Source: Nitrospirota bacterium
GTDB lineage: Bacteria > Nitrospirota > UBA9217
Length of the DNA: 39,571 nucleotides
Assembly (NCBI GenBank): GCA_021783455.1
Contig: JAJXTW010000002.1
Span: 1 to 39,571, forward strand
Direction of reading: 5' to 3'
Part shown: positions 28,743-32,102 of the stretch, one piece after another
How positions within the stretch are numbered: the first letter of the stretch is position 1
Layout: each line of letters opens with the position of its first letter
Notes under the pieces: model-generated
Seen by the model: only the letters and a program-made list of their open reading frames with translations
Databases searched by the model: none
Told to the model about the DNA's origin: nothing
Position numbers and translations under genes: made by a program

Positions 28743-29036
28743 TTATCCGCAGCAGGAGCTCCCGCTGCCGCTGCAGTCGCAGGACGGCTCGCCGCCCGTG
28801 ATCATGCTGTTGATGATGGCGGCAGCGCACCCGACTCCGGCGTTCACGGAAATCGCCCCGAATTCGCAGTTCCTGGCGCAGGCCCCGCACTCCATGCAAA
28901 GGTCACGGTCAATGATTGCTGCGCGCTTGTCCTGCATTTCGAACACGCCCTGCGGGCAGACCTCGACGCATCTGCCGCAGCCCGCGCACTTGTCCGCAGC
29001 ATACGAAAGGGTGGTGACATTCGCGAGATATTTCAT
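28743..29036 (-). CDS. hgcB: Mercury methylation ferredoxin HgcB (2x[4Fe-4S])
   Basis: CAGCGRCVEVCP and CMECGACARNC clusters, an extra Cys in GVGCAAA, and a C-terminal vicinal pair (SSCCG). ATG 29036 forms an ATGA overlap with the hgcA stop; the alternative ATG is 29048. Confidence 0.85.
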   Translation of the reverse strand: MKYLANVTTLSYAADKCAGCGRCVEVCPQGVFEMQDKRAAIIDRDLCMECGACARNCEFGAISVNAGVGCAAAIINSMITGGEPSCDCSGSGSSCCG

Positions 29037-30118
29037 AGGAGCCCCCATTCTTTTACCTTGAGCACGATCAAAAGCACCAGCGATATGCTTGCGGCGCCGA
29101 TATAGATTGGAATGCCGATCTTCAGCTCTTTTTTTACACCGGACATGCCGGTGAATGTCGTCGAACCCGTAAACTGGAGCGCGATGTACGAGCTCATGAC
29201 GGGAAAGAAAAGATACGATACGATCATTGCTATGGTATCACCCGGCGCGGGCAGATGCAAGAGCTGATGGACGGCGAAGACGGCAAGCAGGCCGATGAGC
29301 CATCCCTTGATTGCGAAAGAGCGGAAGGGTATAAAGGGGAGCAACGCAGGCGTTACGAACGCGCCCCCGAGAACGGATGCGAGGCTCAGGATCAGATAGG
29401 GAAGTCCGCCGAACCAGGCCTGTTTGAACAGGACGCCCTGGGGCTCAAGCCCGAAAAAAAGCAGGATGCCCGCGGCCAGCCAGGGGAATTTTTTCATGGC
29501 CGGGTTGATCTCCATGGGCGTAAGGACCAGGCGGTCGAGCATCGGGAACGTGATGGTGCGCATTTCAATCGTCTTCTTGTATCCCGCCTGGACGTATGCG
29601 GGAATGTCCTTTGCCTGCACGGGGCCGAAGGAAATACGAAAGCCGGTCCGTTTCTGCACTTCCGCAGCGTTGACGCCGACCGCGCCGAGCTGGGGCAGGA
29701 TCAGCCTGCGGTGGCTGACCACGGCATCGAGCTTTGTTGTTACGATCCGGTTGACGAGTTCATCGGCGCCGAAGGTCCCTTTTCCGGCCGCGCACCAGAC
29801 ATTGATGCTTTTCGTGTCGAGGACGAGAATCCAGGCCTGCATCCCTTTCAGTTCCCGCCGAAGCATGTCGAAGGTCAGTTTATAGTTCGCGGTCACGAAC
29901 ACATCGGAATCCTTCGTTGGGTCGCCCACGGCATAGAGCCCCGGCGATACGGCATAGTTCATGCGGAACGCGCCGCTTCTGCTCTTGATCATGCCCCAGT
30001 AATCAGGCCGCGACCAGTCCGAGGACAGGCGGAACACGCTTCCCACGGGCGTATTAACCGTGCCTGCTGTCCACGGCGGGGCGACTTTCTTTACGAATTG
30101 CAGAGTCTGTATTTGCAT
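29033..30118 (-). CDS. hgcA: Mercury methylation corrinoid protein HgcA
   Basis: Cap-helix motif NVWCAAGK is encoded at 29780-29803. There is a C-terminal multi-TM domain. ATG 30118 has AAGGAG 6 nt upstream; the longest ORF reaches GTG 30178. Confidence 0.88.
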   Translation of the reverse strand: MQIQTLQFVKKVAPPWTAGTVNTPVGSVFRLSSDWSRPDYWGMIKSRSGAFRMNYAVSPGLYAVGDPTKDSDVFVTANYKLTFDMLRRELKGMQAWILVLDTKSINVWCAAGKGTFGADELVNRIVTTKLDAVVSHRRLILPQLGAVGVNAAEVQKRTGFRISFGPVQAKDIPAYVQAGYKKTIEMRTITFPMLDRLVLTPMEINPAMKKFPWLAAGILLFFGLEPQGVLFKQAWFGGLPYLILSLASVLGGAFVTPALLPFIPFRSFAIKGWLIGLLAVFAVHQLLHLPAPGDTIAMIVSYLFFPVMSSYIALQFTGSTTFTGMSGVKKELKIGIPIYIGAASISLVLLIVLKVKEWGLL

Positions 30119-30170
30119 GAGCATCTCCTTGTGCTGCATCAGTGTTACAGGATGTCCTTCTTTGTCGTTG

Positions 30171-32102
30171 TCATGCACCTTTTACAAGGGCGCTGATTTC
30201 CCCGCCGAACATTTCCACGATCCTCTTTGCCAGTGCAGGCAGCGAGGGGTCCCGAGCTCCCATCAAAAGAACGCAATCTTCTGGTGTCGCGTCAATCTTT
30301 AGTCTGGCAAGCAGTTCATCACGGTCGCGTACCGCTTGCGCATTGAATGCTACGGGACCGAGGCCGCCTATGATGTCTTCCGAGGAAATATCTTTTTGGG
30401 CCGTGCCGCCGGCATAATAGATTGGCAAAAGATAGAGCGAGTCATTTTTTTGGAAAGCAATCCGGAAGGTTTTTATGTATTCCTCTTTTAAAAACCGAGT
30501 CGGACCGAACCCGTGCGGCTGGTAAACGGCAATAATGCGCCGGGAAAGGCCGCGGCTCGCGCGCACAACGGCCGCGATCTTTGCCGGATTATGGGCAAAG
30601 TCGTCGATCACAGACACGTTCTGCTTTGTCCTGGTCACGGAAAAACGCCTGGCCACACCCTCATAATTTTTTACCGCATCAACAAGCGCTGCCCCCTCGC
30701 ATTCGAAATGCTCGCACACGCACAGCGCCGCGGCCAGGTTCTCAAGATTATGGTCCCCGGGAAGCGGAAGGTGGTATTCCGCGCTGTTCCGGAAGAGCTT
30801 GACAGAAGCAGGCAAAAGCTTTTCCTGGTCAGGCCGCCACGAGCCGGTGCCATTTCTGCCGAAACGCACAGTTGCAGGGAGTGAGAGAAGGATCGGATCG
30901 TCGGCGTTCGAGGCTGTCCAGGAGGATTGTGCAACAAGTGTTTTGAAAAGCGCTGTGATTTCGTCAGTGCTTTTATGGTCTTTCGAAACATTCAGGATGA
31001 CTGCTGCCTCCGGGTGGTACTTAACGAGCGATCCGTCGCTTTCGTCAGCCTCCACAACCAGAAGATCGGAGCCGCCGCTATAGGCATTGCCGATCATGCC
31101 CTGTTTTTCGAGCCTGCGCAGTCCCGCACCGCTGATGAGCGAGGGCGATTTCCCGCATGCGGTCAGGAATTCGAAGATCATCGCGGTCACTGTCGATTTT
31201 CCGCTCGTGCCGGCAACTGCGATCGTTCTTTTCGATGCGATAATGGCAGCGAGCAGATCGGATCGATGGACAATGGGAAGGCTGCGGCTTTTGGCAGCAG
31301 CGATGTCGGGATTTGATTCTTCGATTGCCGTTGAAACGCAGACTACGTCAGTTTCTTCAGTTACGCCTGAACCGTCCTGCGGAACGACAGCACAACCGAG
31401 CCCTTCGAGCGATTTACGGACAAAGGCGGTGTCCTCGCTTGCAAGCAAACGATCGGAGCCCGAGACCGCGATCCCCTGGAAGCGCAAGTATTGGGCAAGC
31501 GCGCTCATGCCGCTGCCGAAAATACCGGTAAAATGAACGCTGCGGCACTGGCGATTGTCGATCGCGACGGCCGGAGGATCGATGTACACGACCGTACCTT
31601 CCTTCACAATGTCGAACAGCCGTATGACGTCGTGATTTCGAAGGACCACGCACCCATGCGACAGGGGCCTGCCGATCAGGTCTTCCCTGCCCGTGCCGTG
31701 GATATAGATGTAGCGCTCGTACGAATCAATCCCCGCGCCTTTATTGATCCCTTCCTCAAGGCCTTCGAGCCGCAGAATGCGGGTCAGGATCAAATTATCT
31801 CCGTTCTGTTTATGGTCCCAGTCTTCGCCCGTATCCTCGCGGTCACGGAAAATGCGTCCAGGAGGCGCGCCTGCGCCATATTTCTCATTGATCCGATGCA
31901 GACCGGGCGGAGTTTTAAGGGAGTTCTCCCGATGGCCGTTGCCGAAACGGGAGGTGGAGGCGGCATATTGCTTGACAACGGTGTCTTTTACGCAGACAAG
32001 GAGCTTTTGCGTCTCTACGGACACTACGAGGAAAAGCTCTTGCGGGTCGTGAAGGGAGGGCTCTACTTTTTTATAGATGCGACGTAAACGAGCTGATTCC
32101 AT
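30171..32102 (-). CDS. Fusion protein: N-terminal L,D-transpeptidase (YkuD) domain plus C-terminal Mur-ligase (MurC/Mpl-like) domain
   Basis: YkuD catalytic motif IYIHGT...LSHGCVVLRN. This is followed by VHFTGIFGSGMSALAQYL, the P-loop [21 protein letters not shown] and DDFAHNPAKI. Confidence 0.85.
   Translation of the reverse strand: MESARLRRIYKKVEPSLHDPQELFLVVSVETQKLLVCVKDTVVKQYAASTSRFGNGHRENSLKTPPGLHRINEKYGAGAPPGRIFRDREDTGEDWDHKQNGDNLILTRILRLEGLEEGINKGAGIDSYERYIYIHGTGREDLIGRPLSHGCVVLRNHDVIRLFDIVKEGTVVYIDPPAVAIDNRQCRSVHFTGIFGSGMSALAQYLRFQGIAVSGSDRLLASEDTAFVRKSLEGLGCAVVPQDGSGVTEETDVVCVSTAIEESNPDIAAAKSRSLPIVHRSDLLAAIIASKRTIAVAGTSGKSTVTAMIFEFLTACGKSPSLISGAGLRRLEKQGMIGNAYSGGSDLLVVEADESDGSLVKYHPEAAVILNVSKDHKSTDEITALFKTLVAQSSWTASNADDPILLSLPATVRFGRNGTGSWRPDQEKLLPASVKLFRNSAEYHLPLPGDHNLENLAAALCVCEHFECEGAALVDAVKNYEGVARRFSVTRTKQNVSVIDDFAHNPAKIAAVVRASRGLSRRIIAVYQPHGFGPTRFLKEEYIKTFRIAFQKNDSLYLLPIYYAGGTAQKDISSEDIIGGLGPVAFNAQAVRDRDELLARLKIDATPEDCVLLMGARDPSLPALAKRIVEMFGGEISALVKGA

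Follow-up and report, generated by a model that had tools for sequence, protein, structure and literature searches.

The window, by which we mean the whole stretch of DNA that was analysed (39,571 nucleotides), carries on its minus strand two overlapping genes, hgcA and hgcB. The longest open reading frame of hgcA extends over 30178..29033 (-) with a GTG start, for a product of 381 amino acids, and the in-frame codon upstream of it, at 30184-30182, is TAA. The true start is most likely the ATG at 30118, because it is preceded by AAGGAG with a 6-nucleotide spacer, because homologues are 359-362 amino acids long with a coverage of 99-100%, and because an independent public MAG contig calls the same product. 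The coding sequence is then 30118..29033 (-), or 361 amino acids.

The HgcA protein matches the NCBIfam equivalog model NF040863 (HgcA_corrinoid) with 397 bits for a cutoff of 275 (E 5.9e-119), in a single stretch that runs over profile positions 2-323 of 325. Its corrinoid-binding domain, amino acids 55-177 (29588..29956, -), is recognized by Pfam PF03599 CdhD (E 3.7e-14); PDB chains of CFeSP match the same residues at E ~4e-11, and Foldseek matches the same chains. Inside this domain lies the cap-helix motif NVWCAAGK, amino acids 106-113 (29803..29780, -), whose Cys109 is Cys93 in HgcA of Pseudodesulfovibrio mercurii (Desulfovibrio desulfuricans) ND132, and aligns with the Thr that caps the corrinoid in CFeSP. 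The cap helix is conserved in all 45 aligned homologues, one of which has the accepted variant NVWCASGK, and residues N106, V107, W108, C109, A110, G112 and K113 are invariant among them. Residues 76, 82, 107 and 169 are Thr, Thr, Val and Ala, and match, at a constant +16, the cofactor contacts Thr60, Thr66, Val91 and Ala153 of ND132 HgcA (PMC7305189).

The corrinoid domain is followed by a transmembrane domain of five hydrophobic helices, amino acids 205-358 (29045..29506, -), which the HgcA HMM covers without interruption. The Kyte-Doolittle profile has five hydrophobic segments between amino acids ~213 and 358, with centres near 222, 250, 277, 305 and 345, and the AF2 secondary structure has helices at 212-223, 232-258, 268-287, 295-321 and 327-357. 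The AF2 structure contributes little, since the confidence of the model is low (mean pLDDT 61, and under 50 in the cap helix). The best Foldseek match is the deposited ND132 HgcAB model 9a0b_A (E 3.7e-19, 38% identity over 326 columns), and CFeSP structures come next.

The second gene, hgcB (29036..28743, -), codes for 97 amino acids. Its product matches the equivalog model NF040864 (HgcB_ferredoxin) of NCBIfam with 123.2 bits for a cutoff of 99 (E 3e-36), over profile positions 1-93 of 93, and is also matched by Pfam Fer4 families. An alternative in-frame ATG at 29048, at which the gene call on the public contig begins, would give 101 amino acids; hgcB overlaps hgcA from either of the two. 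We favour the start contained in the ATGA at 29033..29036 (-), where the stop of hgcA overlaps the ATG of hgcB, because such a start-stop overlap (ATGA, GTGA or TTGA, with 43 in the ATGA form) occurs at the same position in 51 of 74 related loci.

The cysteines of HgcB can be read directly against those of ND132, each of which is in register here with an offset of -3. The first [4Fe-4S] motif, CAGCGRCVEVCP (28988..28953, -), contains Cys17, 20, 23 and 27, for Cys20, 23, 26 and 30 in ND132 (PMC7305189). The second, CMECGACARNC (28898..28866, -), contains Cys47, 50, 53 and 57, and includes the C(M/I)ECGA used as a criterion for hgcB (PMC10087281). An additional cysteine, Cys70 (28829..28827, -), lies 13 residues past Cys57, the last one of the clusters, just as Cys73 of ND132 lies 13 residues past Cys60. 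The protein ends in SSCCG, that is, the pair Cys95-Cys96 (28754..28749, -; Cys94/95 in ND132), a Gly and the stop; Cys86 and Cys88 are also in this tail, and Cys-Cys tails recur on HgcB across related loci.

On the 3' side of hgcB, the predicted RNA fold contains a terminator-like hairpin (28641..28695, -), with an 11-bp stem GAAAGGGAGAA/TTCTCCCTTTC followed by ACGCTTTTTT; the segment 28595-28750 (-) folds at -51.7 kcal/mol (z = -3.3). A simple terminator scan, restricted to loops of 3-8 nucleotides, did not pick up this putative terminator, which we attribute to its loop of 21 nucleotides.

An earlier note, made from the DNA letters, had announced most of these elements: the NVWCAAGK motif at nt 29780-29803, a multi-helix membrane domain after the corrinoid domain, a ferredoxin with two [4Fe-4S] motifs, an extra cysteine and a vicinal pair in SSCCG, and an ATGA overlap of the two genes at 29033-29036. 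All of them are present, and the hgcAB signature that it recognized is borne out by the two equivalog models, both above cutoff. It had also suggested to look for a frameshift in the membrane domain: the HMM match being single and unbroken, there is none. A published high-stringency definition lists six cap-helix motifs, NVWCAAGK among them (PMC10087281); with this motif in HgcA, and C(M/I)ECGA in an hgcB of the same contig, the pair falls within that definition.

Assuming that the pair is indeed hgcAB, one has to account for the fact that close homologues of the 5' gene are publicly labelled "acetyl-CoA decarbonylase/synthase complex subunit gamma" or "CO dehydrogenase/acetyl-CoA synthase delta subunit", and that the sole Pfam match of HgcA is CdhD. 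Both would fit a non-methylating paralogue, either of the CFeSP/CdhE type (Wood-Ljungdahl) or of the fused HgcAB-like type. However, the public labels are automatic names that derive from the shared Pfam domain. The CFeSP proteins AcsC/CdhE (PDB 2h9a, 4c1n, 4djd) have a homologous corrinoid domain of ~123 residues with a cap helix in the same position, but the match is limited to this domain: CFeSP has a Thr in place of the cap-helix Cys, an N-terminal [4Fe-4S] domain and a TIM-barrel, and has neither a membrane domain nor an HgcB partner. The corresponding model, CFeSP large subunit/CdhE (NF003195), scores 75 bits for a cutoff of 306, and only at profile positions 322-446 of ~450 amino acids. 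The fused HgcAB-like family (NF043039; non-methylating in tested isolates) gives partial HMM matches, HgcA reaching 204 bits, far fewer than on its own model, and HgcB 58, with a cutoff of 285; that family is a single polypeptide, whereas here a TGA stop splits two open reading frames with a start-stop overlap, and the five-helix HgcA is accompanied by a separate HgcB gene with its own start and stop. The earlier note had singled out a placement by HMM or phylogeny with one of these two paralogues as an outcome that would speak against its reading; by HMM, with both models far under cutoff and the HgcA equivalog far over it, hgcAB is favoured, and we consider a paralogue extremely improbable. 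All hgcA+ isolates tested to date methylate mercury, with the exception of the fused-gene ones (PMC10087281).

The two-gene architecture is the same as that of ND132 (DND132_1056/1057) and of Geobacter sulfurreducens PCA (GSU1440/1441). In these reference strains, HgcA has the same order, a corrinoid domain and then a five-helix membrane domain, with an identical type of cap helix and its axial Cys, and the HgcB of ND132 has a C-terminal Cys-Cys. [quoted passage not shown] Such extensions were reported in many HgcA (Haft preprint 10.1101/2022.07.06.499078); in the HgcA of the window, no Cys precedes Cys109. The short N-terminus without a Cys pair is common to the sampled members of the 69-95% identity clade, where none of 45 sequences has a pair, 42 having no Cys and three having one. 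The missing extension is irrelevant to membership in HgcA, because it is absent from the NCBIfam model and from the Hg-MATE criteria, and because His-tagged ND132 HgcAB produced in E. coli is active (PMC11588087).

The host itself is assigned to Nitrospirota by its housekeeping FtsZ, whose named relatives at 84-89% identity all belong to this phylum. Its lineage occurs in metagenomes of mine tailings and drainage, a type of habitat shared with published Nitrospirota MAGs that carry hgcAB. The best HgcA loci of our genome scan are likewise Nitrospirota MAGs, and HgcA identities to Nitrospirota MAG loci are 55-92%. In that scan, hgcA and hgcB are adjacent in 73 of 80 related loci; no hgcB was detected in the other seven, of which at least three (L030, L074 and L079) break off at the hgcA match or no more than 2 nucleotides from it. 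An identical HgcA is already public in MAG GCA_027325105.1, a public MAG contig is 99.94% identical over 4775 nucleotides with the same gene arrangement, and Logan contigs of a mine-tailings run span both junctions, again with this arrangement. Nitrospirota (Nitrospirae) MAGs with hgcAB have been described from acid mine drainage, paddy soils, groundwater and wetlands (e.g. PMC9948709, PMC7438021), and those from acid mine drainage were correlated with methylmercury (PMC9948709). The pair is thus a routine example of a well-known system, by which anaerobes convert inorganic mercury into the toxic methylmercury, with nothing conceptually new in it.

Upstream of hgcA, on the same strand, lies a gene for a YkuD/ElsL-type L,D-carboxypeptidase fused to a Mur ligase (30171-32102), and downstream of hgcB a class I/II aminotransferase (27418-28590). 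The earlier note had correctly placed cell-wall enzymes on one side and an aminotransferase on the other, and had called this context atypical. The adjective is weakly meaningful, since hgcAB neighbourhoods are known to vary and are not conserved (PMC7438021), but one real difference stands, a missing small gene. Most relatives have an ArsR-type or AbrB/PrlF-type small gene upstream of hgcA, which is absent in the lineage of the window. In 21 related loci, among which are most of the nearest Nitrospirota loci, a Cys-rich AbrB/MazE/PrlF-like gene of ~90 amino acids is found directly upstream of hgcA; its place is taken by the YkuD-Mur ligase gene in the window, in the near-identical locus L081 and in L001, a relative of 90% identity, which are the only ones to share these flanks among the 81 loci compared. 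Genes for ArsR, arsC and acr3 adjoin hgcAB in some related loci; the 39.5 kb of the window yielded no dehalogenase, ars or mer gene.

Compared with L001, dN/dS is 0.21 for HgcA and 0.15 for HgcB, which indicates purifying selection on both. Orthology, integrity, gene order, purifying selection and all the catalytic and ligand residues tested are thus established by sequence analysis. We estimate at roughly 0.88 the probability that the two genes form an intact orthologue of the hgcA-hgcB mercury-methylation pair in an uncultured Nitrospirota bacterium; cofactor loading, expression and methylmercury output are what we infer from it. Judged by its genes, the organism is a predicted methylmercury producer.

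By analogy with ND132, the proteins would work as follows. HgcA would be a membrane-anchored corrinoid protein, with the five C-terminal helices as its anchor and a cytoplasmic CFeSP-like domain that holds cobalamin under the cap helix, Cys109 being the predicted lower axial ligand of Co ("Cys-on"). HgcB, a ferredoxin with two [4Fe-4S] clusters translated from the overlapping start, would reduce the corrinoid to Co(I). The corrinoid would then be methylated, possibly by S-adenosylmethionine, which served as donor to the purified complex of ND132. Finally, the methyl group would be transferred to Hg(II), which the flexible C-terminus of HgcB, with its Cys-Cys pair, probably presents; Cys70 may then receive the product.

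We know of no benefit that methylmercury production confers. Purifying selection implies that the cell profits from these genes, and one can conjecture that, in a true HgcAB, mercury methylation is a side reaction, the native role being for example to dehalogenate halomethanes reductively, or to carry out some other corrinoid-dependent reaction of C1 compounds or metalloids. Such a conjecture concerns the native role and is compatible with mercury methylation. According to a 2026 preprint (10.64898/2026.04.26.720869), heterologous HgcAB not only methylates Hg but also dechlorinates CCl4, and its authors argue that the enzyme evolved to act on halomethanes; moreover, hgcAB is regulated in ND132 by an arsenic-responsive ArsR, and often adjoins ars genes, as the ArsR, arsC and acr3 neighbours of related loci illustrate. 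On the other hand, the dehalogenation claim comes from a single preprint, and nothing in the window, with its lack of dehalogenase, ars and mer genes, indicates a particular alternative substrate, so that we hold a side reaction to be possible but doubtful.

There is also the possibility that the genes, although intact, are silent or ineffective in this organism, for want of transcription or of a delivery of cobalamin or Hg(II), in which case no methylmercury would be produced in situ. The upstream regulator gene is missing, there is no sigma-70-like promoter match in 28400-30500, and no hgcAB transcript contigs occur in three small metatranscriptomes from the same study. This null result is uninformative, because such tiny runs, which are stored as contigs, are no evidence of absence. 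In model strains, too, HgcA reportedly reaches very low levels only (PMC11588087). Values of dN/dS of 0.15-0.21 and the full conservation of functional residues argue for ongoing use. Furthermore, only 52 nucleotides separate hgcA from the upstream gene on the same strand, and the terminator scan reports no hairpin there, so that read-through from this gene is possible. We thus regard silent genes as unlikely.

The version of hgcAB in this lineage is stripped-down, having neither the metal-handling Cys-Cys or Cys-Sec extension nor the ArsR/AbrB/PrlF-type gene, and follows a gene of the peptidoglycan-recycling type; it is tempting, but a very long shot, to suppose that, transcribed by read-through from that gene, it is expressed constitutively or in step with cell-wall turnover instead of responding to metals. 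If true, hgcAB would be regulated here in a way that has not been described for it, and such organisms could be steady methylators in mine waste.

As of 2022, there was no cultured representative with validated methylation outside Desulfobacterota, Firmicutes and Euryarchaeota (PMC10087281). The locus touches a question that concerns the whole field, the activity of hgcAB from phyla without cultured methylators. To our knowledge, hgcAB is the only genetic marker of microbial methylmercury production, and its presence therefore marks this Nitrospirota population, which lives in mine tailings and drainage, as a possible source of a neurotoxin that bioaccumulates. Knowing this is of use in the risk assessment of such sites and in marker-gene surveys.

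The genes hgcA and hgcB, both on the minus strand, were distinguished from the fused HgcAB-like and CFeSP paralogues by the cutoffs of curated HMMs. The HgcA protein scores 397 bits against the NCBIfam equivalog model HgcA_corrinoid (cutoff 275, E 5.9e-119), versus 204 bits against the fused HgcAB-like model (cutoff 285) and 75 bits against the CFeSP/CdhE model (cutoff 306), of which only the last 125 positions are matched; HgcB scores 123 bits against HgcB_ferredoxin (cutoff 99) and covers the whole profile. The locus also carries the features of the community high-stringency criteria (PMC10087281): the cap helix NVWCAAGK, and an hgcB on the same contig with C(M/I)ECGA. 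The earlier note, which had proposed an hgcA-hgcB pair and named the two paralogous groups as its rivals, was thus right on the identity of the genes, and every motif position that it gave was reproduced exactly from the sequence. It had also raised the possibility of a frameshift in the membrane domain: the match to HgcA_corrinoid runs unbroken from profile position 2 to 323 (of 325), which leaves no room for a frameshift, in the membrane domain or elsewhere. Matches in Pfam are limited to the shared CdhD corrinoid domain and generic Fer4 families, which is why several public sources label close homologues "acetyl-CoA synthase subunit gamma".

The longest open reading frame of hgcA, at 30178..29033 (-), begins with GTG and codes for 381 amino acids. 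An alternative start, ATG at 30118, is preceded by AAGGAG with a 6-nt spacer and yields a product of 361 amino acids. Three observations favor this second start: the best 120 database homologues are mostly 359-362 amino acids long and align over 99-100% of the 361-aa query, gene calls on an independent contig of a public MAG (GCA_027325105.1) give the identical 361-aa protein, and the match to the NCBIfam profile begins only at residue 29 of the shorter version. The gene hgcB ends at 28743, and has two candidate starts: ATG 29036, which lies within the ATGA at 29033-29036 and gives 97 aa, and ATG 29048, which gives 101 aa. We prefer the former, since in 51 of 74 related loci the two genes overlap by a start-stop ATGA, GTGA or TTGA at the corresponding place. 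With either start hgcB overlaps hgcA, and the translational coupling suggested in the earlier note is a reasonable reading in both cases.

The residues singled out in published work on the reference strain ND132 can be followed one by one. The cofactor contacts Thr60, Thr66, Val91 and Ala153 of ND132 HgcA (PMC7305189) correspond here to Thr76, Thr82, Val107 and Ala169, with a constant offset of +16. Cys109 aligns with the cap-helix Thr of CFeSP, the Cys-for-Thr change from which the "Cys-on" model of cobalt ligation originates (PMC7305189). In HgcB, Cys17/20/23/27, Cys47/50/53/57 and Cys70 correspond to ND132 20/23/26/30, 50/53/56/60 and 73, with an offset of -3, and the tail ends with Cys95-Cys96. 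In ND132, methylation is abolished by mutating Cys93 of HgcA or Cys73 of HgcB, or by truncating the membrane domain of HgcA, and mutating both C-terminal Cys of HgcB lowers activity by about 95% (PMC7305189); all these elements have counterparts here, the membrane domain being represented by five segments between residues ~213 and 358, as judged by hydropathy.

In a search of PDB sequences, HgcA matches nothing but the corrinoid domain at the C-terminus of the CFeSP large subunit (E about 4e-11, residues 55-177 of HgcA); the search returned no solved HgcAB structure, its matches being CFeSP domains and generic ferredoxins. An AlphaFold2 model of HgcA, computed from a 45-sequence alignment, is of low confidence, with a mean pLDDT of 61 and values below 50 in the cap helix, and was used solely for its secondary-structure pattern and for a Foldseek check. 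Strands and helices alternate in its corrinoid domain, as expected, and five long helices come after. In Foldseek it matches best the deposited computational model of ND132 HgcAB, 9a0b_A (E 3.7e-19, 38% identity over 326 columns), and CFeSP structures come next.

According to a 2022 preprint (10.1101/2022.07.06.499078), the N-terminus of many HgcA proteins, those of the founding members from ND132 and Geobacter among them, is extended by an unannotated stretch that carries a PCUGP selenocysteine motif or its Cys-Cys equivalent. A Cys-Cys-type motif is found in about 41 of the 80 related loci of our genome scan, and PCUGP in one, a Syntrophorhabdus locus (L059) where the motif is reached by reading through TGA. 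The HgcA of the window has no Cys before Cys109. Among 45 sampled HgcA of its clade, at 69-95% identity, none has an N-terminal Cys pair: ahead of the cap helix, 42 lack Cys altogether and 3 have a single one. We rejected a longer hgcA reached by selenocysteine read-through, since the in-frame stop that precedes the open reading frame is TAA (30184-30182, -), and the frame beyond it is part of another gene. The codon of HgcB Cys70 is TGC, not TGA. Since recombinant His-tagged ND132 HgcAB produced in E. coli methylates mercury (PMC11588087), the extension would be dispensable for the chemistry, and by this analogy we do not count its absence against membership in the HgcA family.

The closest distinct relative, L001, is 90% identical over the locus at the nucleotide level, and comparison with it gives dN/dS values of 0.21 for hgcA and 0.15 for hgcB (Nei-Gojobori). 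Across the 45 aligned homologues (69-95% identity), there is no variation in the cap helix or at many positions of the membrane domain. By these comparisons both genes are functional and under purifying selection, and neither is a decaying copy. Three metatranscriptomes of the same study, all too small for the result to be interpreted, contain no words and no contigs of hgcAB transcripts. A simple scan found nothing that resembles a promoter in 28400-30500; its two terminator-like matches both lie inside coding sequence and do no better than shuffled sequences. Folding uncovered a strong hairpin at 28641-28695 (-), between hgcB and the next gene, with an 11-bp perfect stem GAAAGGGAGAA/TTCTCCCTTTC and a 21-nt loop, followed by the T-run ACGCTTTTTT; it resembles a terminator, and the simple scan, whose loops are limited to 3-8 nt, did not report it. 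An Rfam gathering scan and a tRNA scan of the whole window yielded nothing, including no cobalamin riboswitch.

We now consider the neighborhood, which the earlier note called atypical. Its description of the flanks is accurate. Upstream, on the same strand, a gene of 643 amino acids at 30171-32102 (-) ends 52 nt ahead of the hgcA start, and joins a YkuD/ElsL-like L,D-carboxypeptidase domain (residues 25-175; ElsL model 132 bits, below cutoff) to a MurC-like ligase domain (residues 188-618; murC model 286 bits, below the cutoff of 335). The protein resembles a fusion for peptidoglycan recycling, in which the trimming and re-ligation steps would be joined. Downstream of hgcB, a 152-nt spacer, which holds the hairpin, precedes a class I/II aminotransferase. 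The word "atypical" presumes a typical context, and published surveys find none that is conserved, apart from ars genes in some cases and small regulators upstream (PMC7438021, PMC10349881). Our own comparison agrees with them. In the genome scan, hgcB lies downstream of hgcA in 73 of 80 loci, and at least three of the seven others (L030, L074, L079) end at, or at most 2 nt from, the hgcA match. Among 81 loci compared, the Mur-ligase and aminotransferase flanks, fusion gene included, are shared by just two, L001 and the near-identical public contig, L081; we thus rejected a conserved synteny that would link these genes functionally to hgcAB.

In 15 loci, clustering of flanking ORFs shows that the gene immediately upstream of hgcA is of the ArsR family. 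With tblastn, a gene for a Cys-rich AbrB/MazE/PrlF-like protein of ~90 amino acids is found directly upstream in 21 loci (L002-L008, L010, L011, L014, L016, L017, L019, L027, L033, L035, L042, L047, L066, L079, L080), mostly Nitrospirota, which include most of the closest Nitrospirota relatives. This protein, with a Cys-rich N-terminus (e.g. KYCCPPADKISCC), is probably the putative hgcAB regulator of PMC10349881 and PMC7438021; both types of upstream regulator are known from the literature. The AbrB/MazE-type gene is absent upstream of hgcA in the window, in L001 and in L081, and neither an ArsR-like nor an AbrB/PrlF-like gene is detected anywhere in the window (tblastn, E <= 1e-3). That this lineage has lost, or lacks, a regulator-like gene upstream of hgcA is the sole real peculiarity of the neighborhood.

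The rest of the window contains a complete dcw (division/cell-wall) cluster at 542-19314 (+), with mraZ, STAS-domain gene, rsmH, ftsL, ftsI, murE, murF, mraY, murD, ftsW, murG (11397-12479), murC (12382-13848), murB, ddl, ftsQ, ftsA, ftsZ. The small STAS-domain gene (1062-1421) between mraZ and rsmH appears unusual for such a cluster, and the YkuD-Mur ligase fusion adds a second Mur ligase to the canonical murC. Two tandem small genes, at 19444-19815 and 19889-20305 (-), match the NCBIfam "two-CW domain-containing protein" NF045718 with 98 and 105 bits. A DUF3800 gene at 33561-34589 (-) adjoining a Mrr-type restriction endonuclease (34626-35513), and an HNH endonuclease at 134-439 (-), may be defence or mobile-element remnants.

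The arrangement of the genes is not an assembly artefact, since the public contig of GCA_027325105.1 has the same gene order at 99.94% identity over 4775 nt, and Logan contigs of the tailings run span both flanking junctions at 7-9x depth. The best 12 of the 80 related hgcA loci, from GTDB species-representative genomes, are all in Nitrospirota/Nitrospirae MAGs. The named relatives of the FtsZ of the window, at 84-89% identity, are likewise all Nitrospirota, so the host assignment does not rest on a horizontally mobile gene. A mine-tailings metagenome holds 96% of the sampled words of the DNA, and mine-drainage, wetland, aquifer and soil metagenomes hold lower shares.

By analogy with the studied enzymes, the two clusters of HgcB would reduce the corrinoid of HgcA to Co(I), which would then be methylated, with SAM as the donor; in purified ND132 HgcAB, methylation by SAM goes through methylcob(III)alamin with Co-thiolate ligation (PMC11588087). 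The methyl group would move to Hg(II), which HgcB probably brings in on its flexible Cys-Cys tail; the product would then pass to the equivalent of Cys73 (PMC7305189). The native role of HgcAB is disputed, one 2026 preprint proposing halomethane dehalogenation (10.64898/2026.04.26.720869); nothing within the window bears on it.

As of the 2022 consensus paper, there was no culture-validated methylator among Nitrospirota (PMC10087281). Nitrospirae with hgcAB made up 15 of the 46 putative methylator MAGs surveyed in sediments of acid mine drainage, and their abundance correlated with methylmercury (PMC9948709). The hgcAB locus described here is real, but its annotation is routine: the system is well known and has been reported before from this lineage and habitat. 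On its gene content, this Nitrospirota bacterium is predicted to methylate mercury.
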